A stretch of 64,000 bases of DNA from an uncultured Opitutales bacterium (GCA_944389435.1 CALXMI010000052.1:544-64543); one strand, 5' to 3'; shown: positions 24,784-62,397, counted from the first letter of the stretch. Notes: a model not told the origin generated them from the sequence alone. A program made the numbers and translations.

Positions 24784-26214
24784 CTACAAAGGCAAAACCT
24801 TGTAAGAATCCTTCGAATCTAGAATCTTCCAACCTGACTCTTCCAGAATCTTACGAATATCATCAGCAGCCTTAAAATCACGTGCCAACTTTGCCTGCCA
24901 ACGTTGCTCTGCCATACGCCGTACCGGTAAAGGAACATGAACCTCTTCCTCTTGCAGCGCTTCATTAAGATCAATGCCTAAGGCATAAAGACAGGCAGCC
25001 CATTCTTTCAAAAGCAAGGGAAACATAGGAACTTCAACAGTTGGCATTTTTCGAATAAACAAGAACAAACAACCTAAGGCTTTTGGTGTATTTAGATCCT
25101 CGCAAAGGGCCTCAAAAAAAGCTTTTAAAAATCGACATTCTTTCGGCAACACAATTGTAGTCTGCAGCGATTTTAACTGTTCAAGTGAAACATTGCACAT
25201 TTGCGCCAACTTTTGAGAGAAAGCGTGAATTTTCTGTAAGGCCACTTGGGAGGCTTTCAACAGATCGAACGTAAAATTGAGAGGCTGGCGATAATGCCCA
25301 GCCAACAAAGCGTATCGAACGGCCGACGGAGTGTACTGCCTGTCTTGCAACATATCCAAGGTCAGTAAATTGCCTAAGCTTTTTGACATTTTTTGCCCTT
25401 CAACCTTTAAGTGGGCAATATGCATCCAATGCCGAACAAAAGGGCCTCCGTAAGCAGCTTCCGATTGCGCAATTTCATTTTCATGATGCGGAAAGCACAA
25501 ATCCACACCACCCGTGTGTAAATCAACCGTTTTTCCTAGGTATTCATGCGACATTGCACTGCATTCAATGTGCCACCCGGGACGACCTTTTCCCCAAGGA
25601 CTATTCCAAAAAATATCACCATCTTCGGGCTTATAAGCTTTCCACAAAACAAAATCGGCCACCTGATCTCTATCATATTCGTCAGCATCATTGGATCGTC
25701 CGGCACTATTGGTTGATTGTGTTTCAAGCTTACGCGCATCCAAATGCGATAAACGGCCGTAATCTTTAAAAGAAGAAACCTTAAAGTATACCGACCCTCC
25801 TCGTTCGTAAGCATGGCCCTTTTGGATGAGAATTTTTATCAAATCTTGTTGGGCTTCAATAGTAGCCGTTGCTCGAGGCTCTACCGTAGGAGGTAATAGA
25901 TTTAAACGGTCGCAATCTTTTTGAAAAACCTCAATCCAATGTTGTGTATAATCCGACAAGGCCTTTTGTGCGTCACGTGCGCCTCGAATGGTTTTATCAT
26001 CCACATCGGTCAAATTTCTAACGTAACAGACATCGTTCGACAACAACTTTAATAAACGCAGGACGGAATCTTGTATAACATACGTGCGGAAATTCCCGAC
26101 ATGGGCTGGTCCATAGACAGTGGGCCCACAACAATAAACGCCTAACTTTCGATCTTTGGGTTGTTGAATCTCTTCGTAAGCACGCGTATAGGTATTGTAT
26201 AGCCTTAACCTCAT
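24784..26214 (-). CDS. cysS: Cysteine--tRNA ligase
   Basis: 'CGPTVYGPAHVGNFRTY' (HIGH) and 'KMSKSLGN'. The ATG at 26214 lies 2 nt after the upstream gene's stop; the track start at 26220 is TTG. Confidence 0.95.
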   Translation of the reverse strand: MRLRLYNTYTRAYEEIQQPKDRKLGVYCCGPTVYGPAHVGNFRTYVIQDSVLRLLKLLSNDVCYVRNLTDVDDKTIRGARDAQKALSDYTQHWIEVFQKDCDRLNLLPPTVEPRATATIEAQQDLIKILIQKGHAYERGGSVYFKVSSFKDYGRLSHLDARKLETQSTNSAGRSNDADEYDRDQVADFVLWKAYKPEDGDIFWNSPWGKGRPGWHIECSAMSHEYLGKTVDLHTGGVDLCFPHHENEIAQSEAAYGGPFVRHWMHIAHLKVEGQKMSKSLGNLLTLDMLQDRQYTPSAVRYALLAGHYRQPLNFTFDLLKASQVALQKIHAFSQKLAQMCNVSLEQLKSLQTTIVLPKECRFLKAFFEALCEDLNTPKALGCLFLFIRKMPTVEVPMFPLLLKEWAACLYALGIDLNEALQEEEVHVPLPVRRMAEQRWQAKLARDFKAADDIRKILEESGWKILDSKDSYKVLPL

Positions 26215-26216
26215 TT

Positions 26217-26693
26217 TCAAATACGTAACATAGGATTAAGATTGGTGTCAACCCTTAACGCTTGTTCCATTACAGTACCATTGTTTTGTGTAAATTCAAG
26301 ATAGATTTTCTGTACATTTCGGACCGCGGCAATAAAGAGGTCGAAGGCTTTTATAAATTTATACTCGTCCAAATCCTCTATGAGAAACCTTCGGTACAGG
26401 AGTATTCGTTGCGAATCATCTTCAAGGGCCAATGTACTTCCGTAAGTCTTATGTCCCCAAAGATTTAACCTCAGAAAAAACTCTAATGATTTCTTTATGT
26501 CCGTCGAATCCGTTAAAGTCACAATAGGCGCACAAAAATAAACATAGGCGCTTGCCTCCGGCACATTAACAACATATTCTTGGTCATCGCTATCACGTGC
26601 TGCAAACGTTCCATTCGGATTTAAATGGAAAATCTTACCGCCCGTAAGCCCATATTGACGAACCCAAACATTAACTTGTTCTTTTGTTGTCAT
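26217..26693 (-). CDS. CesT/SycE/YbjN-superfamily (type III secretion chaperone-like fold) protein
   Basis: 158 aa. The pattern '...AYVYFCAPIVTL...FFLRLNLWGHKTYGSTLALEDDSQRILLYRRFLIEDLDEYKFIKAFDLFIAAV' matches the class I chaperone / YbjN layout. Its ATG overlaps the clpC TGA (ATGA at 26690-26693). Confidence 0.6.
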   Translation of the reverse strand: MTTKEQVNVWVRQYGLTGGKIFHLNPNGTFAARDSDDQEYVVNVPEASAYVYFCAPIVTLTDSTDIKKSLEFFLRLNLWGHKTYGSTLALEDDSQRILLYRRFLIEDLDEYKFIKAFDLFIAAVRNVQKIYLEFTQNNGTVMEQALRVDTNLNPMLRI

Positions 26694-29278
26694 TTTACAG
26701 ACACCTCTTTACAATGTAGTTGCTTTTTTGAAGTTGCCTGTTTCTTTTTAGATTTCTCGCTTGAACTTGAAAAACGTAATAGATTGTTATCTAACGAAAA
26801 AGTCACCCGTTGCCCTGATTTTATTTTACCTTCCAATAAGCCGTCTGCCAACGCATCTTCGACGTGCCGTTCGATGGTACGCCTAAGTGGCCGTGCTCCC
26901 ATTTTAGCATCAAACCCTTTATCAACAAGAAATTTTTTAGCTTCCCGATCCAAACAAAGTTCAACTTTGTTCTCAGCAAGACGTTCCCGTAACTTATCCA
27001 GCTCAAGGTCAACAATAGCCAGCATATGCTCTCGCGTCAAAGGCCTAAAGATAATAGTCTCGTCGATACGGTTCAAAAACTCGGGCTGAAACGCCGATTT
27101 TAACGCCTCTTGAACATTCGACTGTATCTGCTCAAATCTTGCCGTTTGTGAGGGTATACCAAATCCTAAACCTGTATCTTTTTGCAACGCTTGAGCCCCC
27201 ACATTGGAAGTCATAACAATGATAGTGTTCTTGAAATCAACACGACGCCCCAATGCATCCGTCAGATGGCCTTCTTCCAAAACCTGCAAAAGAATTTGAA
27301 TAACATCCGGATGCGCTTTTTCTATCTCGTCAAAAAGCACAATTGAGTAAGGCTTTCTACGAACAGCTTCTGTCAACTGCCCACCGTCTTCATGGCCAAC
27401 ATAACCCGGAGGCGAACCAATCAGCCTTGCGACCGTATGCTTTTCCATGTATTCAGACATATCCAGTTGAACAATGGCTTCCGGACGTCCAAAAATCTGC
27501 TCTGCCAAAATCTTAATGAGATACGTTTTTCCAACACCCGTAGGCCCTAAGAACATGAAAGAACCTATCGGTCGCTGGGGATCGCGAAGGTTGGCACAAG
27601 ATCGTTTTAAGGCCCTGGTAAGCGACGAAATGGCTTCTTGTTGGCCCACCACACGTTCTTCTAAAATCTTGTCCAAATTCAAAAATTGTTGCAACTTATG
27701 CGTGCGCATGCGTTCAATAGGAACACCGGTCCAATCAAAAACAATATGCTGCAAGGTTTCTTCCTTTACTAGAATCTTTTTTGTTTTTGAATTTCTCTTC
27801 CAATTTTCTAACAATTGGCTCCGTTCAGCAATCAACGTCTGCTCTTTATCGCGCCAACGAGCCGCTTCTTCAAATTTTTGATCGTTTATGGCTGTAAATT
27901 TTTTCTGATTTATAGCCTGAATAGCTTGATCTAAGGTTTCTGTCGAAGGCGCTAACATCGCACCCATGATCTTGGTTCGAGCACCCGCTTCATCCAGTAA
28001 ATCAATCGCCTTATCAGGGAAAACGCGATCGGTAACGTAACGCTGCGCAAGACCAACGGACTGCTCTAAAATAGCATCCGAATAGCGAACATTATGGAAA
28101 TCCTCGTAATGCGACTTAATACCTTCTAAAATCTTTAGAGTGTCTTCTGTAGAAGTTGGCTCGACTAAAATGGCTTGAAATCGACGATTTAAGGCCATAT
28201 CCTTCTCAATATAGCGTCGATACTCATCCAATGTGGTTGCGCCAATACACTGCAGTTGTCCACGAGCTAACACCGGTTTTAGTATGTTAGAAGCATCCAT
28301 GGAACCTTCCGCCGAACCCGCTCCCACGATGGTATGAAGTTCATCCAAAAACAGAATAATATTCGAACCTTTAACTTCGTCCATGAGGTTCTTCAAACGT
28401 TCTTCAAATTGTCCACGATACTTCGTGCCCGATAACAGAAGGGCCAAATCCAAGTTGTATATCGACTTATTAACCAATTCTGCAGGTACTTTTCCTGCGA
28501 CTATATGCTGAGCCAATCCCTCAACCACAGCCGTTTTACCAACACCAGCTTCTCCAATCAGCACCGGATTATTCTTGGTTCGGCGGCACAGGACCTGTAT
28601 CAAACGTTGAATCTCTTTCTCACGCCCAATAACAGGATCAAGCTCTTTATTTCTTGCTTTTTGCGTCAAATCCAAACCGAAATTCTTTAAAATAGAAGGT
28701 TTCGTTTTGCTTGTCCCTAACGAAAAAAACGAATCGTCGTTATCAAAATCGTCGTCTATCGAATCGTCATCGTTATACAAATCCTCATCGTCGTCATCGT
28801 CATTTTTATTGGGCATCATTTCGGCCAAAATTTCATGCTTACAGGTCTGAGGGTCAATATCAAGCACCTTCAAAATTCGAGCCCCTAACCCCTTGCCTTC
28901 TTCCAATAAACCTAACAAGAGATGTTCGGTCCCAATGTAAGTGTGCTGAAAATCTTTAGATATCTTCTCTGCAAATTTAAAAACTTTCTGTACGCGTGGC
29001 GTAACTGGAACGTCGGTTGAATTTTTTGATATTTTTTCAACGCAAGCGTAATCCACCTCCTCGGTTTTTCCAGACGCAACATGTTGCAACAACGTATCGT
29101 GAATGGTGTCAATATCCAAGCCAATCTTTTGAAGAACCCGAACGGCAATACTCTGCTTGAGCTCTAAAAGCCCTAACAATAAATGTTCGGTCCCTAAGCA
29201 CTTATGTTGAAACTTCAAAACAAATTTTTTGGCTAAAACAAAAACTTGCTGTGCCTTGGGTGTTAAATTATGAAACAT
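26690..29278 (-). CDS. clpC: ATP-dependent Clp protease ATP-binding subunit ClpC
   Basis: 862 aa. Two Clp-N repeats ('[10 protein letters not shown]' x2), Walker A '[15 protein letters not shown]' and '[15 protein letters not shown]', Walker B 'ILFLDELH' and '[11 protein letters not shown]', UVR-like '[12 protein letters not shown]', and a ClpP-loop candidate 'GLGFG'. Confidence 0.95.
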
Positions 29279-30344
29279 AGCTGCCTCCTTTCACTTTTAA
29301 GAAAAAAGGATCGTCTATTTTTGAAAAATAGGCACGCAAAACATCTGCTCGGACTTTGTCTATTGTTAAAACGTCCTTGCTAAAGAATTCTTTCAAGCAA
29401 ACGGACGACATAGATTGCCAAAGCCTAAGAACGGCACGACGTTTTTTATTAGAAATAAATCCCATATCTATGGCCATTAAAACAATCGAAAGTAAGTTCA
29501 TAGACTCCTCGTAAGATATTTCATAACAACGGCCCAATAACCCTAACGAACGACTGATACTATCTTGTAAAAGTGTTATATTATCCTTTGCCACCACCTC
29601 ACGTGCCCGATGTTCTAACTGGCACAATCGTTGCGCCATGTTGTTCACGTGATCTAAGAGGGTGTTTTCATCGCCCCCCAACGCGTCTAAATTGGACAAA
29701 AAGAAAAGATGACCCATTATTTTATCCTTATCCAGGTGGGCTGGGAGCAAACTTAACTGTAGCTCTTGTGTAGCTTCTAAAAGGGTCGGCAGCTTTTTTA
29801 AAAAACAAAGGGCTGGCAAATGCAGATACGTTTCCGCCACAAGCCCACAACCTAAATCGTGCGGGTTGCTGGTAAAGTACCCCCATGTAGGATCAAAGGC
29901 GTAAGTCAAATTTTGTTCCAACAAAGAATCTAACGCGTCCAATTTTTTCCACATCGTTTTAAGTTGCAAACGAGACAAAGTAAGCTGTAACTGTACATGA
30001 TCACCATTGTTAGCAATAACCTGCACGTGTTGCTTGGGATGATACCATATAACGGTCTCGTCACACGGAAAGTCCAGGTAGAACAGGTTTTTTAGAAGCT
30101 CTTTTTCGTTAGAATTGCAATCACTCCACCTAAGCTCAACACATTCGTCTAAAGGCAAAATAGGCGCGAAAGCCTTATACAAACGTTCCACGATCGCCTG
30201 TTTTTGAGCCGAAGATGCTTGACTCGAAAATGGAATATTTTCGATATTACGTGATAAGCGCACACGATTCCCCATCCACACGGAAGCATTATCTACTTTC
30301 GTTTTTGTTTCCCATATATCACGAATCTCTTGCCTTATACTCAT
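29268..30344 (-). CDS. mcsB: McsB-like ATP:guanido phosphotransferase homolog with degenerate catalytic motifs (probable pseudokinase)
   Basis: 358 aa. The N-terminal 'GNRVRLSRNIENIPF' and 'TYLHLPAL' are McsB-like. However 'NEEDH' is 'NNGDH', 'CP(T/S)N(L/V)GTGLRA' is 'NPHDLGCGLVA', and 'RG..GE' is 'LPAHLDKD'. It overlaps the clpC start by 11 nt. Confidence 0.8.
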   Translation of the reverse strand: MSIRQEIRDIWETKTKVDNASVWMGNRVRLSRNIENIPFSSQASSAQKQAIVERLYKAFAPILPLDECVELRWSDCNSNEKELLKNLFYLDFPCDETVIWYHPKQHVQVIANNGDHVQLQLTLSRLQLKTMWKKLDALDSLLEQNLTYAFDPTWGYFTSNPHDLGCGLVAETYLHLPALCFLKKLPTLLEATQELQLSLLPAHLDKDKIMGHLFFLSNLDALGGDENTLLDHVNNMAQRLCQLEHRAREVVAKDNITLLQDSISRSLGLLGRCYEISYEESMNLLSIVLMAIDMGFISNKKRRAVLRLWQSMSSVCLKEFFSKDVLTIDKVRADVLRAYFSKIDDPFFLKVKGGSYVS

Positions 30345-30434
30345 ACTTTGTTAACGTGCGTTATCATGGAATCTTTCCACAAAACACGCAAGCCTTTATT
30401 AGATATAACGGAAGTTTTTCAAAAAACTTATGTA

Positions 30435-30571: not shown

Positions 30572-30640
30572 AACACAAAAGGTCTCCCAAAGTTGAGACC
30601 TAAAAAAACCCCTTCAGAGCTTAATTGTTGGGGCGGCCTC
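30572..30640 (-). terminator. Possible ldhA terminator region (weak)
   Basis: On the minus strand a short hairpin (CCCC..GGGG) is followed by a 7-T run. Then GGTCTC(30600-30595)/GAGACC(30586-30581) is followed by 'ttttgtgtt'. The stems are short. Confidence 0.3.
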
Positions 30641-40014: not shown

Positions 40015-40095
40015 TCACCGTAAAGTGTCATGAATTTTATTTGATTCTTACTTTAGGTATTGCAAATTATTTCATATACATTAGAATTTATTATA

Positions 40096-42822
40096 ATGGA
40101 CATTCGTTATACCCGAAGGAAGCGACACCGTGGAAATGTCGTTTTTACTTCATTGATTTTTTTATTTATCTTAACAGGAACGTTACGCCTATGCGTTAAC
40201 AAAACGCTTCTTGAAAGTCGCCAGACATCCCTATTTATTCAAGAAACGCAAGCATATTACCTATCCGAAAATTTGATGTCCCTAGGTCGCGACTACGTTT
40301 ATCAAATGATGCAAAATCCTAGAGAAACCAACATTTTCTTAGGTACAACTGCGTTTTACGACAAAGATAAATCGATAACAGCAAACGGCATCATTGATTT
40401 CAATGGATCGCTCAGCAAGCAGCAAATTGTACCCGACGATTTCCCGTTACAAATAGAAGATAATTCTTGGAGCATAAAAGGCGGTCCTGTTTTCTGGCAA
40501 AGCAACAACAAAAACATCAACGACGAACGCTATTTATCGGAAATTTACCTTATAGGCAAATTCGATGTCAATTCTGCTTTCATGAACGATTGGACCTATC
40601 GTATGGTACAAACCATAGAAATCGAACGTAATCCTCTGTGCGATTTTTCCCTTTATGCCGAAGGAGATTTGGCTATACGAGTACAAAATGTTACAGACAC
40701 CACTTTTGAAAAACCTGTACAAATCAACGGAAATGCACGTTATTATAGGATACACACACAAGATCAAGCTAAAGGCTTCGGTCGTAGTACAAGCAGCTTC
40801 AATATTGCAGGACATTTTCTAAGAATTAACGAAAACGATACAACATCCACCTTTAGCTCTATAAAAATTCCAGATAAGTATTGTTTGTACGACAATAGCT
40901 CCTTTTACGATAACTTTAAAAACCCTTACTTGCCTAAAAGTGCTGGCAAGTATTATTCTTCTTTTCATCTTCTCGACAAGGAACTTTTAAACTATTACAG
41001 TAATGCAACCAATCCTGCTTATAAAAACTATGAACATTATATCTATAAAACCTTTAAAGGCAAATTTTTGACACGCAGCCGTATTTATCGCCCATGTGGG
41101 TTTGATCCAGAAAACGACTGGGGCTATTGGTGGCCGATCGAAGATGGCGGAAAATCGGCTAATGCTCGTCTGTTGGACTACGTGACCGGCATGCATAACC
41201 TAACCGACTCTTCGAAAGTAAGCAGTTCTAGGATCTTTACCAACCGAATAGGAAACATTAAAACTGCATTTAGTTCTTTGAGAGGATTAAATGAGTATCA
41301 ATTGACCGAAAAAGCTCGATTGGTTGAAATGCAAAAATTATGCAATCATCCGCATCTTCAATTAAAACTATTAATTTCCTTCTCCGAAAGCACCGGTATA
41401 TCCACTACAGTCGACACCTTTTACACACGCTATGGGTTAAGTTGTTGCAAGTCAGCTGAAAATAATACCTTTGCTCCTAATCCCATCTTTCATCCAGCAA
41501 AAGATAATATCTTTATCAGTCGTTACTATGCTCTGATAAATCAGAAAAAGTATATTTATGATGCAAGTATGCGTTACTCTGAAGATGAAGGTGTTGCTTT
41601 TTATAAAACAAATGAAAATAACATACCTACAGCAAGTAACAGCATCGAATCTAATTACTATTTTAATAAAATAGACAATGGAAAATTATGTTGTCATACA
41701 AAAAGTAAAGACCCAACCTACACGGGTGAAGTTTATTACAATACAACCTATAACACCACACCAACTTCTTCAACAGATATTAATTTCGGCCCACATAAGC
41801 TCGTTGAATCGACTGAAAATTATAATCACTGGGAACCAGATGCAACCGCCACACCCGTTGTGCCAGATTCCAATACGCCCATTTTCATGTACGACCGAAA
41901 TCGTGCAAAATGGATACAAATTATCGACATTGATGTTGCTAAATTATGTAACATAAGCTCAGACAATTGGAAAATTTACAATCATACTTTAGCCGTTAAC
42001 ACATATTGGGTTGGAGCAAACCTAGGGCCACGTAATTATACAGTAGGCACAAACGATATTAGAAAAAATTATATCACAAATCGAACAAATGAAACCTCTT
42101 TTACACCTAAAAACACTAACGTTATTGATATTGGCGTTCGCCTCATTAACGCATCAAAGATTCCAACAGGTGGCTTAACGATTTGGTGCCCTTATCCGCT
42201 CTATATTAAAGGGGATTTTAATACTACCGATACACAGCCAGCTTTCATCGTAACTGATTCCTTAACTGTTTTAACGAATTCCTGGGCAGATTGGCGAAGC
42301 ATGGTAGATCCCTACGATAGTTACTTCAACAACATGACAGGACTGTATTCCTATCGCTCACAAACACCACCTACCATCAAAGCCCATATTATGACTGGCC
42401 GCACCCATCCGAATTACTGGCTCACCAGCGATAAATCTAAAATTTCTCCGGACGGTGGCCATCGCGAAGCCATTCGTACACTAGAACCCATGAACGACGT
42501 TATACCCTTGTACGGCTCATTGCTGTTGCCGTATTATTGCAAAGAACAATGGGAGCCACCGATCAACTTTCAAAAATGGGAAACGGCTGGTTTCTATCCC
42601 TGTTGTTTAGAGCTTCACTCCTTAGACACAAAGATCCCAGCTGGAATGACGTTTTACCACAAGGTTAATCGTGGCCGTAAAACTCAGGCCATTGGCCCAA
42701 CTACGTACAGCATCCTCGAAGGCAGTACACTTTGGAGTAAGGATTGGTCAAATATCAGCAACGTATTTTCATCCTACCACAACGCTTTGCCAAATTACCT
42801 AAAATACGAAACCGCCCCGTAG
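40096..42822 (+). CDS. 908-aa protein with a PilX-N-like uncleaved N-terminal anchor; otherwise unknown (candidate filament tip/cap protein)
   Basis: The ATG at 40096 gives 'MDIRYTRRKRHRGNVVFTSLIFLFILTGTLRL' (basic stretch plus hydrophobic helix, no G/F cleavage motif). The body is rich in N, Y and T. The C-terminal region contains 'GGLTIWCPYPLYIKGDFNTTDTQPAFIVTDSLTVLTNSWADW'. Confidence 0.8.
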   Translation: MDIRYTRRKRHRGNVVFTSLIFLFILTGTLRLCVNKTLLESRQTSLFIQETQAYYLSENLMSLGRDYVYQMMQNPRETNIFLGTTAFYDKDKSITANGIIDFNGSLSKQQIVPDDFPLQIEDNSWSIKGGPVFWQSNNKNINDERYLSEIYLIGKFDVNSAFMNDWTYRMVQTIEIERNPLCDFSLYAEGDLAIRVQNVTDTTFEKPVQINGNARYYRIHTQDQAKGFGRSTSSFNIAGHFLRINENDTTSTFSSIKIPDKYCLYDNSSFYDNFKNPYLPKSAGKYYSSFHLLDKELLNYYSNATNPAYKNYEHYIYKTFKGKFLTRSRIYRPCGFDPENDWGYWWPIEDGGKSANARLLDYVTGMHNLTDSSKVSSSRIFTNRIGNIKTAFSSLRGLNEYQLTEKARLVEMQKLCNHPHLQLKLLISFSESTGISTTVDTFYTRYGLSCCKSAENNTFAPNPIFHPAKDNIFISRYYALINQKKYIYDASMRYSEDEGVAFYKTNENNIPTASNSIESNYYFNKIDNGKLCCHTKSKDPTYTGEVYYNTTYNTTPTSSTDINFGPHKLVESTENYNHWEPDATATPVVPDSNTPIFMYDRNRAKWIQIIDIDVAKLCNISSDNWKIYNHTLAVNTYWVGANLGPRNYTVGTNDIRKNYITNRTNETSFTPKNTNVIDIGVRLINASKIPTGGLTIWCPYPLYIKGDFNTTDTQPAFIVTDSLTVLTNSWADWRSMVDPYDSYFNNMTGLYSYRSQTPPTIKAHIMTGRTHPNYWLTSDKSKISPDGGHREAIRTLEPMNDVIPLYGSLLLPYYCKEQWEPPINFQKWETAGFYPCCLELHSLDTKIPAGMTFYHKVNRGRKTQAIGPTTYSILEGSTLWSKDWSNISNVFSSYHNALPNYLKYETAP

Positions 42823-56031: not shown

Positions 56032-56342
56032 GACCTCTCTTTATCTCTTTATTGACCTCCTTTACACCACGCTCACACTCCAACGCTTCTTCTATCACAG
56101 ACATTTCCAGACTCAATTTTCCAAAACTAAAGCTATATTCCATCTCAAAGAGGAACGCTTACTGAAATCCTTTTCTTTGCATCTTTGGATGTCTAATTCT
56201 GTCAGTAATCTATTTGTTGGAGCTTTCGAAGGAACGTGATCCATATTCTTGTATCTCGCAAAAATTCTCACAAAAACACTACCGTATTCTAAAAAATCAC
56301 CCAACTGCGCAACAACCTTCCTTAGAAAAAAAGTTGCAATAT

Positions 56343-57755
56343 GTGCGTAAATCCTTTACTTTAGAGTCTGTGAAGGCGTATCGAAACCTATTAATCTTGC
56401 CTGCGTTTTGTTGTTTGCCCCTAGTTTTATCGGCCAGTAACAACGAACGAAGGTGGAATTTTTGGATAGAAAAAAGGACGACGCCTGACGAAACTCAATC
56501 GTTTGTTCGGCCCATTGGCGCCAGTTATGAGACAAAAGAGCGAATCGAGAATTTCTTTTTTTATCCTTTTGGCTGGGAATATCGTCAGCCCGATCGTCGT
56601 TACGCTTCTGCTATATTTAGCCTTGTTCAGTACGATTACCATAACGGCCCAACCCCTTACCGCGAAGGGAAGGTTTTTCCTTTTGTTTACTTTAAAAAAG
56701 GCGTAAACAAAGAAGCTGATTATGCAGCTGTTTGGCCTTTAGGTGGAACCGTCAAACCTTTCTTGGGATGCGACCAAATTAGCTGGTTCATGTGGCCCCT
56801 ATGGGTAAAAACTCAGAACAAAGGTGTCGTAAGCCGCTGGATGCCTTGGCCGTTTATTAATTGGCGTAAGGGTGACCACTGTGGTTTTGGATTTTACCCA
56901 CTTGGCGGTCATTTTTATAAAAAAGACGAATTCGACGAACGTTACTTTTTATGGCCTCTGGGATACCACCATAACCATTGGAAGCAAAACACCTACAAAT
57001 GTGGATTTCTGCCATTTTACACTTACGAAAAAAGTCCTAACGTAAAAGACCTATCGATCGTTTGGCCGTTTTGGGGCCATCGAATTGAAAACAAGCCTCA
57101 TTATGAAGAACATCGCCTTTTATGGCCATTATGGGTCCAAGGACGAGGCGAATTACGTACGGTAAAACGCTGGGCGCCTTTCTATACATTTTCAGAGATT
57201 AAAAACGATTCAAATTACCAAAAGACTTGGTATGCTTGGCCCTTCTTTAAGTTTCTATCTTGGACCGAACATGGCGTAAATATTCAACAGGAACAATTTT
57301 TGTATTTTTTATTTTGGCATCAAGAACAGTTCCATGCCCAAACGGATGAATTTTTAGGCAGCAAGACCCACGTCTGGCCCCTCTATTCTTATTGGGACGA
57401 TGGTCATGGACATAAACAATTGCAATCTTTGAGCCCCTTTGAGGTGTTTTTTCCCGGTAACAAAGTCGTACGCGACGTTTATACGCCCTTATTTACCCTT
57501 TTTCGATACGAAGAAAAGGATGGTTCCATACAACAATCTTGCTTGTTTAAGCTATTTCAGGAGAAAAGAGATAAAGAGGGCACAAGCCTGCATTGTCCAC
57601 TTTGTTTAGACTATAAAAATACTCGGCAAGAAAAAAGCTTTTCAATTTTAAAAGGTTTATTAGAATATAAGAAAGCCGGCAGTGAAAAGACGTTTCGGTT
57701 GTTTTGGATTCCGTTAGGAAAGGCAAAAATCGTAAAGGATAACAGGCTGTTATGA
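56343..57755 (+). CDS. Secreted aromatic-Pro-Leu/Phe repeat protein (~19-residue period), unknown family, translationally coupled to mlaE
   Basis: The track ORF is 56214..57755 (TTG), and there is no ATG in the first ~190 codons. A GTG at 56343 gives a signal-like 'MRKSFTLESVKAYRNLLILPAFCCLPLVLSA/SNN'. About 16 motifs of the type (W/Y/F)P(L/F) follow: FYPFGW, VFPFVY, VWPLGG, MWPLWV, PWPFIN, FYPLGG, LWPLGY, FLPFYT, VWPFWG, LWPLWV, WAPFYT, AWPFFK, VWPLYS and others. The stop overlaps the mlaE ATG (ATGA at 57752-55). Confidence 0.75.
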   Translation: MRKSFTLESVKAYRNLLILPAFCCLPLVLSASNNERRWNFWIEKRTTPDETQSFVRPIGASYETKERIENFFFYPFGWEYRQPDRRYASAIFSLVQYDYHNGPTPYREGKVFPFVYFKKGVNKEADYAAVWPLGGTVKPFLGCDQISWFMWPLWVKTQNKGVVSRWMPWPFINWRKGDHCGFGFYPLGGHFYKKDEFDERYFLWPLGYHHNHWKQNTYKCGFLPFYTYEKSPNVKDLSIVWPFWGHRIENKPHYEEHRLLWPLWVQGRGELRTVKRWAPFYTFSEIKNDSNYQKTWYAWPFFKFLSWTEHGVNIQQEQFLYFLFWHQEQFHAQTDEFLGSKTHVWPLYSYWDDGHGHKQLQSLSPFEVFFPGNKVVRDVYTPLFTLFRYEEKDGSIQQSCLFKLFQEKRDKEGTSLHCPLCLDYKNTRQEKSFSILKGLLEYKKAGSEKTFRLFWIPLGKAKIVKDNRLL

Positions 57756-61450: not shown

Positions 61451-61903
61451 ATGAAGAACAAGTTTTTAAGTCAATGTAGAGGGTTCTCCCTCATGGAAAT
61501 ATTGATCGTACTAGCTCTTATGGGCATGCTGCTAGGGTTGGTCATTTTCAACTCAGAATCGATTTTTGGTGGTGGCCAGAAAAAAGTCGCCAAGTTGTTT
61601 GTTTCAAAAAGCGTGGATATTCCGCTCATTGCGTATCGTTCACATATTGGCAGTTATCCTTCTACAGAAGAGGGCTTAAGTGCTCTACTGAAAGCACCTA
61701 TGGGAAAATCTTCACGCTGGCAAGGGCCTTACATCAAAGATCGTGAAAGTTTAGTAGACCCCTGGGGCAATCCTTACCAATACCGATATCCAGGCGTTCA
61801 TAATCCCAACAGTTACGATGTTTGGTCTATGGGGCCGGGCGGACAAAGTGGCGATGACGATGACATTGGCAATTGGGACAACAATGACGAAAGCGAAGAT
61901 TAA
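61451..61903 (+). CDS. gspG: Type II secretion major pseudopilin GspG
   Basis: 'CRG/FSLMEILIVLAL', 'YPSTEEGLSALL', 'DPWGNPYQYRYPG', 'YDVWSMGPGGQSGDDDDIGNW', plus an acidic tail. Confidence 0.92.
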   Translation: MKNKFLSQCRGFSLMEILIVLALMGMLLGLVIFNSESIFGGGQKKVAKLFVSKSVDIPLIAYRSHIGSYPSTEEGLSALLKAPMGKSSRWQGPYIKDRESLVDPWGNPYQYRYPGVHNPNSYDVWSMGPGGQSGDDDDIGNWDNNDESED

Positions 61904-61911
61904 TTGCTGCA

Positions 61912-62397
61912 ATGCCAGGTAATCGAAAATGCGCCTTTTCTTTAATCGAGGTGCTATTAGTACTGGCCCTGTTTGGATTAATAGGGTCTGTATGTGTCAT
62001 CAATTTTGACGTCGTACAAAAGGTCTTTTCCTCTGGCAATACGCAATGGATAACCTTGATAGAGGAAGCCGTTCAAGAAGGGCGGCTTTTGGCCTCTAAA
62101 GATCACTGTGTTGTTTTTTTAAAACAGGACGAAAAAAACCTTTCCTTGTATAAAAGGCCTCAGGAAATTTTGAGAATATTTCCTTGTCCTGCGACGGAAG
62201 ATACCTGTCATTTTGTATCCGGAGTATTGACCGAAAATGGCCTATTGCGCCCGTCTGAGCAAAAAATATCGCAAATCGAAATCAACCCAGACGGCTTTGT
62301 CAAAAGCGCATTCGTTGTCATTAATGGTGAAGAAGAACAAATTTATTCCATCGATCCACTAACAGGGATTTTTAAACAAACGGAGACATCCTTATGA
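61912..62397 (+). CDS. gspH: Minor pseudopilin, GspH-like by position
   Basis: 'NRKCA/FSLIEVLLVLALFG' (Ala at -1, Glu at +5). It is the second gene of the gspG operon. Confidence 0.6.
   Translation: MPGNRKCAFSLIEVLLVLALFGLIGSVCVINFDVVQKVFSSGNTQWITLIEEAVQEGRLLASKDHCVVFLKQDEKNLSLYKRPQEILRIFPCPATEDTCHFVSGVLTENGLLRPSEQKISQIEINPDGFVKSAFVVINGEEEQIYSIDPLTGIFKQTETSL

Follow-up and report, generated by a model that had tools for sequence, protein, structure and literature searches.

The 64,000-nucleotide stretch of DNA analysed here, from now on referred to as the window (uncultured Opitutales bacterium, GCA_944389435.1 CALXMI010000052.1:544-64543), carries a gene encoding a McsB-fold protein, here called mcsB*, which overlaps the clpC gene that follows it (Table 1). 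McsB is the writer of the bacterial phospho-arginine degradation tag, while ClpC is its reader. A first-pass annotation of this DNA had reported an intact open reading frame (ORF) of 358 amino acids whose end overlaps the clpC start by 11 nucleotides (nt), and had proposed that its product is a probable pseudokinase. The overlap and the length are borne out by the ORF coordinates, and the frame is uninterrupted from its ATG start. At least three independent assemblies yield exactly this protein, which is therefore not an assembly artefact. The gene upstream of mcsB* in the window encodes a 2-hydroxyacid dehydrogenase and lies about 400 nt away. A terminator-like hairpin (30580..30601, minus strand; AGGTCTC...GAGACCT with a T-rich tail) is found after the dehydrogenase gene and separates it from the mcsB*-clpC unit.

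Table 1 Features of the mcsB*-clpC locus (window coordinates)
Feature	Position	Strand	Description
mcsB*	29268..30344	-	Predicted pseudokinase of McsB fold, its catalytic site and phospho-arginine receptor site both degenerate; from ORF, Pfam, NCBIfam, PDB, AlphaFold2/Foldseek and site table
clpC	26690..29278	-	862 amino acids; two Clp_N repeats with GTEH motifs, UVR-type M-domain, two AAA modules with GLGFG ClpP-docking loop (Pfam: Clp_N x2, UVR-type M-domain, AAA, AAA_2, ClpB_D2-small)
mcsB*/clpC junction	29268..29294	-	clpC ATG 11 nt before the mcsB* stop; AAAGGAGG Shine-Dalgarno sequence at 29284..29291 inside the mcsB* 3' end
Promoter-like region	30360..30412	-	CCGTTAT box, AAAGGCTTGCGTGT (-35-like), 15-nt spacer, CCATGATA (-10-like)
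PCDET motif, residues 93-97	30054..30068	-	P93 invariant, C94 and T97 at least 90% conserved; its stretch aligns to a short McsB loop ahead of the NEEDH strand
Degenerate NEEDH motif NNGDHVQLQ, residues 112-120	29985..30011	-	NEEDHIRIQ aligned; E120N, E121G, R125Q
Degenerate catalytic Cys loop NPHDLGCGLVA, residues 160-170	29835..29867	-	C167N, R176V; lowest-confidence loop of the AlphaFold2 model
Degenerate lid loop LPAHLDKD, residues 200-207	29724..29747	-	R207L, G208P, G211-E212-G213 to L-D-K
ClpC poly-acidic insertion, residues 159-182	28733..28804	-	Linker between N-terminal domain and first AAA module
CesT-family gene	26217..26693	-	158 amino acids; 4-nt overlap with the clpC stop; position kept in several clade loci
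cysS (cysteinyl-tRNA synthetase)	24784..26220	-	Last gene of a tightly packed run; 4-nt overlap with the CesT-like gene

Profile and structure comparisons relate mcsB* to McsB over its whole length. The Pfam model of the ATP:guanido phosphotransferase domain (PF00217) matches with an E-value of 2.9e-29, covering profile positions 51-202 only, and all five NCBIfam McsB equivalog models match far under their cut-offs (best score 194.9 bits against a cut-off of 385 for NF002194; 154.5 against 500 for NF053707), a distance that sets mcsB* apart from McsB of Bacillus subtilis and Geobacillus stearothermophilus. A phmmer search of the Protein Data Bank (PDB) returned the McsB structures of these two species as the nearest (E 8e-36 to 5e-34), followed by arginine and creatine kinases (E 1e-5 to 1e-10). 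An AlphaFold2 model generated from a 13-sequence input has a mean predicted local distance difference test score (pLDDT) of 85 and a predicted template modelling score of 0.83; the sole internal segment with pLDDT below 50, residues 159-163, is the former catalytic-cysteine loop. When submitted to Foldseek, this model matches the McsB structures 6fh1, 6tv6 and 6fh3 at full length with template modelling (TM) scores of 0.81-0.83 over 345-353 aligned columns. The C-terminal dimerisation domain McsB_C is detected by PF27454 on the identical protein P0001, and the structural alignment includes the C-terminal helices. Given this full-length match of the model, mcsB* retains both McsB domains, the phosphotransferase domain and the helical dimerisation domain. 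Its likeness to the B. subtilis and G. stearothermophilus enzymes (6tv6, 6fh1) lies in the two-domain fold (TM 0.82, about 26% identity) and in the position of the gene directly upstream of clpC.

Unlike these enzymes, however, mcsB* is devoid of E120, E121, R125, C167, R176, R207 and E212. McsB residues, from R29 through A342, are numbered here as in B. subtilis McsB, whereas C94, K208, H212 and other residues specific to mcsB* follow its own numbering. The numbering of the B. subtilis McsB sequence agrees with the published C167, R194, S285, R337, D338 and R341 (PMC8370763, PMC11046695) as well as with the PDB alignment; the ClpC K85 numbering is uncertain by one residue, and the roles of McsB residues were taken from papers restating primary work. 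In McsB, the catalytic site is formed by C167 together with the NEEDH motif (PMC11046695). B. subtilis SCPTNVGTGLRAS aligns with SNPHDLGCGLVAE of the window protein (C167N, T169H, N170D, T173C, R176V), and VVRGIYGEGSEA aligns with SLLPAHLDKDKI (R207L, G208P, G211L, E212D, G213K). These alignments confirm what had been read by eye in the first-pass annotation, namely the loss of both glutamates of NEEDH (now NNGDH), of the cysteine and arginine of CPxNxGTGLRA, and of RG..GE; all motifs quoted there, including the framework motif YLHLPAL (residues 173-179), were located in mcsB*. The N-terminal RxRxxRN motif is kept as NRVRLSRN (residues 26-33), with R29, R31 and R34 retained.

An apparent loss of this kind could result from a wrong alignment register, in which case mcsB* would be an active arginine kinase. 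This is very improbable, as the same register is obtained independently from phmmer against the PDB, from a 60-sequence MAFFT alignment and from the Foldseek structural match, and is anchored by invariant flanking motifs (D-H, G-Y-x-T, G-x-G-L, H-L-P and G-x-x-F-x-x-x-N). No displaced Glu-Glu, Cys-Pro or Arg-Gly pair was found within a few residues of the expected catalytic positions. The correspondence with Bacillus and Geobacillus McsB residues, and with it the by-eye register, is therefore right.

The consequences of these changes can be gauged from published mutagenesis. In B. subtilis McsB, any one of the substitutions R29K, R31K, R34K, R125K, R176K, R207K or R337K suffices to eliminate kinase activity in vitro, and C167S serves as the usual kinase-dead allele (PMC7235348). 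mcsB* carries at least five changes that are each singly inactivating in this model enzyme, and on the basis of the mutagenesis it is in all probability not an arginine kinase. The regulatory site is affected as well. The allosteric phospho-arginine receptor site of McsB consists of R337, D338, R341 and S285 (PMC8370763). In mcsB*, R337 has no counterpart and S285 is replaced by tyrosine, whereas R341 and D338 remain. In ancestry and fold mcsB* is a member of the McsB family, but since it fails every catalytic and allosteric defining feature tested, it should not be annotated as a protein-arginine kinase (EC 2.7.14.1).

The window protein belongs to a small clade. A word-indexed search of 5.8 billion proteins yielded seven relatives that are 41-43% identical to it, after which canonical McsBs follow at 25-27%. 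When 1.84 billion cluster representatives were searched exhaustively by HMMER with a clade profile, about nine scored 358-617 bits, a single one, P0022, scored 256 bits and all others scored at most 207; the McsB family as a whole has 4622 representatives. The clade comprises the window protein and 15 further proteins of 33-46% identity, and those of its loci that are labelled come from Opitutales or Verrucomicrobia metagenome-assembled genomes, some of them from the rumen. A metagenome scan with clade motifs identified 80 loci, only two of which (L010 and L011) belong to the clade. The other 78 represent an unrelated canonical McsB from human-gut assemblies that contains DSVSRSLGLL by chance, and were discarded.

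According to the MAFFT alignment, E120, E121, C167, R207, G208 and G211-E212-G213 are missing from all 16 clade sequences. Elsewhere the losses are less uniform: R176 is found in two members only, R29 and R31 vary, and R125 is present in most members, the window protein not being one of them. Of the five phosphate-binding arginines (R29, R34, R125, R176 and R207), each member retains three at most. E120 is replaced by D, N or S, E121 by G, R, N, S, C, I or A, and C167 by N, E, R, A, S or K; the fact that these replacements differ by lineage is the signature of relaxed constraint at the catalytic positions. In the receptor pocket, R337 is absent or replaced throughout the clade and S285 is Y, F or L, while R341 is kept and D338 is variable. 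Conservation of at least 90% among 44 canonical McsBs is lost in the clade at 19 positions. Most of them lie within known catalytic motifs, and they include R29, R31, E120, E121, Q127, C167, N170, T173, R176, S178, R207, G208 and G211 as well as Q222, S224 and a few neighbours. Common to the clade and canonical McsB are the framework residues R34, N35, D122, H123, G172, G174, H182, P184, G218, N225, E233, R272, R341 and A342.

Phylogenetic analysis by neighbour-joining, a distance method, places the clade on a long stem and supports its monophyly in 100 of 100 bootstraps; P0022 is its sole sister (95 of 100). Ratios of nonsynonymous to synonymous substitution rates (dN/dS) among orthologues, calculated for genome pairs with unsaturated synonymous sites, are 0.09-0.28 for mcsB* and 0.04-0.12 for clpC in the same pairs. 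The mcsB* clade is thus under purifying selection. Destroyed catalytic motifs and NCBIfam scores far under the equivalog cut-offs might also be taken to indicate a decaying pseudogene or an assembly artefact without function. This explanation is scarcely credible, however, given that the mcsB* ORFs are intact at all clade loci, across lineages as divergent as stated above, that 33 columns are invariant among 15 clade sequences, that the AlphaFold2 model is confident and the identical protein recurs in independent assemblies, and that conservation extends to a promoter-like region and to the coupling with clpC. With homology to an enzyme family, loss of essential residues and purifying selection, mcsB* fits the operational definition of a pseudokinase. 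The original proposal of a probable pseudokinase is thereby strengthened, through the clade-wide losses under selection, the published mutagenesis and the degraded phospho-arginine pocket.

The genetic surroundings of mcsB* differ from those of mcsB in B. subtilis and G. stearothermophilus in that neither mcsA nor ctsR adjoins it and clpC is overlapped rather than separated. Searched by tblastn, the window and 186 kb of related clade loci yielded neither an McsA homologue, the query being a verrucomicrobial McsA, nor a second McsB. A B. subtilis CtsR query gave no match; CtsR is not expected outside Firmicutes. Matches to the CtsR box occur at chance level (12 observed, 11.9 expected), CIRCE elements gave zero matches, and no YwlE-like low-molecular-weight phosphatase was seen among the ten small ORFs scanned in part of the window. 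The searches and operator counts agree with the earlier observation that mcsA, ctsR and a CtsR box are lacking here. The genes upstream of mcsB* vary, encoding the dehydrogenase in the window, rmuC at L090, L092 and L093, and ABC permeases at L094, and are never mcsA.

The region directly preceding mcsB* is itself conserved. Its consensus consists of TCCGTTAT, N12-13, AAAG(G/A)CTTGCGTGT, N15 and (T/C)CA(T/A)GATA, lying about 15-20 nt before the start codon. This composite pattern is found once per locus in nine clade loci, always directly before mcsB*. Upstream regions share a mean column identity of 64%, although the proteins are only about 40% identical. The CTTG...CCAT spacing is reminiscent of sigma-32-type heat-shock promoters. 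Besides the window, the element was seen at L001, L003, L005, L006, L010, L090, L092, L093 and L095. At L093, the called start of protein P0017 (3309..3341) falls inside the promoter-like element; the real start is probably a downstream ATG, giving MDKQERIHYLW.

Coupling to clpC is a further shared feature. The junction is readable at 13 of the 14 clade loci, no downstream gene having been found in L011, and stop and start codons overlap in 12 of these 13, by 11 nt at 11 loci and by 8 nt at one, with the Shine-Dalgarno sequence inside mcsB*. The associated ClpC proteins share an acidic linker. In each of the 11 clade ClpCs in which it could be read, this linker contains a poly-Asp/Glu insertion and has a net charge between -11 and -16, compared with -2 in the single canonical verrucomicrobial comparator. 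An electrostatic match between mcsB* and this linker was considered and rejected, as the clade proteins (mean isoelectric point 6.73, net charge -2.1) do not differ from 44 canonical McsBs (6.72 and -2.8). The window ClpC keeps its GLGFG ClpP-docking loop and F436 of the M-domain.

The phospho-arginine pockets of the clade ClpCs show several substitutions. E32D is found in 11 of 12 clade ClpCs (L001-L006, L010, L090, L092, L093 and L095), the window ClpC keeping the glutamate. At L003, L006 and L010 the second pocket reads TTAH rather than GTEH (G104T, E106A). R9 is replaced by K, N or H throughout the clade, whereas both the active sister and the canonical relative have arginine there. Taken from the substitutions E32D and E106A with G104T, these sequences suggest that phospho-arginine reading is relaxed in the clade lineage.

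ClpC rests in an inactive assembly and is switched on by partners acting at its N-terminal domain or M-domain (PMC12583610), and McsB is counted among its adaptors (PMC8957991). Unphosphorylated McsB is bound and inhibited by ClpC, and the C167S variant retains part of the effect of McsB on MgsR turnover, which the authors read as a kinase-independent adaptor function (PMC7235348). Because of this published evidence and the conserved coupling to clpC, we favour, with some reserve, a reading in which mcsB* is a pseudokinase that acts as a non-catalytic ClpC partner, either adaptor or regulator. Descended from the protein-arginine kinase McsB but catalytically dead, it would be unable to bind ATP productively or to phosphorylate arginine; it also lacks what McsB requires for phospho-arginine-dependent allostery and oligomerisation. 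The two genes are translationally coupled, the clpC start codon and Shine-Dalgarno sequence lying inside the end of mcsB*, and mcsB* and ClpC would be produced from one transcript. The mcsB* dimer would then partner the ClpC-ClpP protease without phospho-arginine tagging. It might activate ClpC or choose substrates for it, as an adaptor or assembly factor, or might alternatively act as a brake on ClpC.

It should be noted that several points weigh against such a partnership. In B. subtilis, McsB has been reported to serve as a ClpC adaptor only when phosphorylated and active (PMC7235348), so that a phosphorylation-independent adaptor would depart from that model. At one clade locus, L094, mcsB* and clpC do not overlap but are separated by a gap of 49 nt. 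T7, E32 and E106 of the phospho-arginine pockets, among them both GTEH glutamates, are still present in the window ClpC, so that phospho-arginine reading may persist. Contigs were searched, and an active kinase may be encoded elsewhere in the genome. Finally, P93, C94, E96, T97, K208 and H212, residues that are invariant or nearly so in the clade, are located in two loops around the former active site. Such new residues around the old active site are easier to reconcile with a repurposed pocket than with a scaffold that is purely inert.

The last point leads to a different explanation, in which the former cleft has been rebuilt for another ligand, metal or peptide, or for another reaction, with the outcome being relayed to ClpC. 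Cys94 and the acidic residues of the PC(D/E)ET loop, K104, K208 and H212 would be used for this purpose. PC(D/E)ET, K208, H212 and a distinctive dimerisation-domain block set mcsB* apart from B. subtilis and G. stearothermophilus McsB, and the newly conserved residues of the clade are concentrated in three regions, namely P93-C94-(D/E)-E96-T97 with W100 and K104, K208 with H212, and residues 258-309 of the dimerisation domain. P93 and H212 are conserved at 100%, C94, T97 and K208 at 93% and E96 at 87%; W100 and K104 are conserved as well. K208 directly follows the lid-loop motif LPAHLDKD; both it and H212 belong to the lid loop or to its base. The two loops in which these residues cluster cover the active site of McsB, where they contact substrate and nucleotide (PMC11046695), and D122, H123, the GxG of the catalytic loop and HxP are still conserved in the clade. 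Nonetheless, we regard a repurposed pocket as unlikely. The five phosphate-binding arginines are patchy and lineage-specific, which argues against nucleotide-dependent chemistry, and C167, E121, R176 and R207 have each been replaced by six to nine different residues, as would be expected under relaxed constraint rather than for a new defined site.

An active kinase elsewhere would allow yet another role, that of a regulatory pseudo-paralogue which modulates an active McsB, perhaps accompanied by McsA and YwlE, by forming heterodimers with it or by competing for ClpC. The retention of T7, E32 and E106 in the window ClpC is compatible with this, as is the fact that no block of mcsB* is better conserved than the dimerisation domain, and the search covered 64 kb of the window genome together with short flanks in related genomes. 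Such a role is nevertheless quite improbable. mcsB* occupies the ancestral position of mcsB before clpC, as does the active sister P0022, and hence is the orthologue and not an extra copy; neither a second McsB nor McsA was found in 186 kb, and the clade ClpCs show E32D in all but one case and E106A with G104T in three.

The closest catalytically intact McsB, P0022 (L091), comes from the same lineage and helps to place the loss of catalysis. It resembles the clade in overlapping a very similar clpC by 8 nt, in having no adjoining mcsA, in carrying the CTTGCGTGT...CATGATA upstream element and in having already lost R337 and S285. In contrast to the clade, its NEEDH motif, CPSN cysteine, GTGMR arginine and RG..GE are intact, and it directly follows groES-groEL and does not have the CCGTTAT box. 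The groES-groEL-mcsB-clpC arrangement spans 3858..7441 of L091. A 53-amino-acid ORF before P0022 was considered as a mini-McsA and rejected, as it contains no cysteines. A canonical verrucomicrobial-type relative, P0012 (L007), shows the order mcsA(UVR)-mcsB followed by a 187-nt gap and clpC, whereas mcsB* overlaps clpC and does so without mcsA. From the tree and these gene contexts we infer that mcsA was lost and tight coupling to clpC established while mcsB was still active, and that catalysis was lost afterwards, in the ancestor of the clade.

Degenerate McsBs also occur outside the clade. Among 146 aligned non-clade proteins, 13 have changes in at least three of ten catalytic positions and are unrelated to the mcsB* clade. 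In P0093 (L099 5001..6083), nine of the ten positions are changed, and the gene stands in a UVR-gene (mcsA-like)/mcsB-like/clpC arrangement. In P0051 (L100 1757..2833), six are changed, and the gene lies between a UVR-motif (mcsA-like) gene and a Ser/Thr kinase gene. Several catalytic changes were also seen in the McsB homologues P0028, P0080, P0083, P0085, P0127, P0153 and P0161, at 23-28% identity. P0093 and P0051 are like mcsB* in combining the McsB fold with changed catalytic positions, and in the case of P0093 in adjoining clpC. They differ from it in keeping the upstream UVR-motif gene, with a Ser/Thr kinase gene following in P0051, and are only 23-24% identical to the window protein, so that their losses are independent. 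Judging from these sequences, McsB catalysis appears to have been lost repeatedly while its partners were retained.

Precedents for action on Clp ATPases without phosphotransfer, either proposed or shown, are provided by the C167S variant of B. subtilis McsB and by the ClpC adaptors MecA and MdfA (PMC12583610, PMC7235348). The C167S effect, however, stems from a laboratory mutation in an otherwise active system, whereas the predicted kinase-dead state of mcsB* is natural and fixed in a whole lineage; MecA and MdfA have folds unrelated to that of mcsB*.

Downstream of clpC, a CesT-family (type III secretion chaperone-like) gene is present in the window and at L001, L002, L092, L093 and L096-98, and absent from the L006-type subclade. 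Copies are located at L001 11623..12084, L092 8628..9095 and L093 6966..7430, the window copy being 41% identical to that of L001. No type III secretion genes were seen among the annotated window ORFs, and the CesT-family gene may belong to the ClpC module. Elsewhere in the window, two plus-strand ORFs of 920 (40060..42822) and 513 amino acids (56214..57755) have no Pfam match at E 1e-5. Two adjoining type II secretion/type IV pilin-like genes (61451..62397, plus strand) encode N-terminal methylation motifs and belong to the type II secretion system protein G family. An Rfam scan of the window gave no match.

A bolder version of the partner hypothesis, which we put forward only tentatively and think unlikely to hold in full, sees in mcsB* the first member of a class of phosphagen-kinase-fold pseudoenzymes, obligate ClpC partners that act independently of phospho-arginine, with tagging replaced in this lineage by a stoichiometric ClpC module. 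This module would consist of a kinase-dead dimer whose rebuilt cleft (the cysteine of PC(D/E)ET, K208 and H212) senses a ligand or binds substrates, of a ClpC with a new poly-acidic linker and, in many members, of the CesT-type chaperone encoded after clpC. If this is true, the independently degenerate McsBs P0093 and P0051 would imply that a kinase-independent function of McsB is ancient and general.

Since 2005-2007 there has been debate, resting largely on point mutants, over whether McsB also serves as an adaptor in a way that does not require its kinase activity. The clade described here would represent a natural separation-of-function allele, in which catalysis, the allosteric pocket and McsA have been lost while the protein was kept and its coupling to clpC tightened. 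No published description of catalytically dead McsB homologues was found by a full-text literature search, and in a 2025 review of bacterial pseudokinases McsB is cited only as an active kinase. For the genes of this clade, the labels 'protein arginine kinase' and 'ATP:guanido phosphotransferase' would be wrong, and our results suggest that an mcsB-like gene alone should not be taken to imply phospho-arginine signalling. The clade would offer a clean system for studying the role of McsB toward ClpC in the absence of phosphorylation, and its retention across a gut and rumen Verrucomicrobia lineage suggests that McsB has a kinase-independent job with ClpC.

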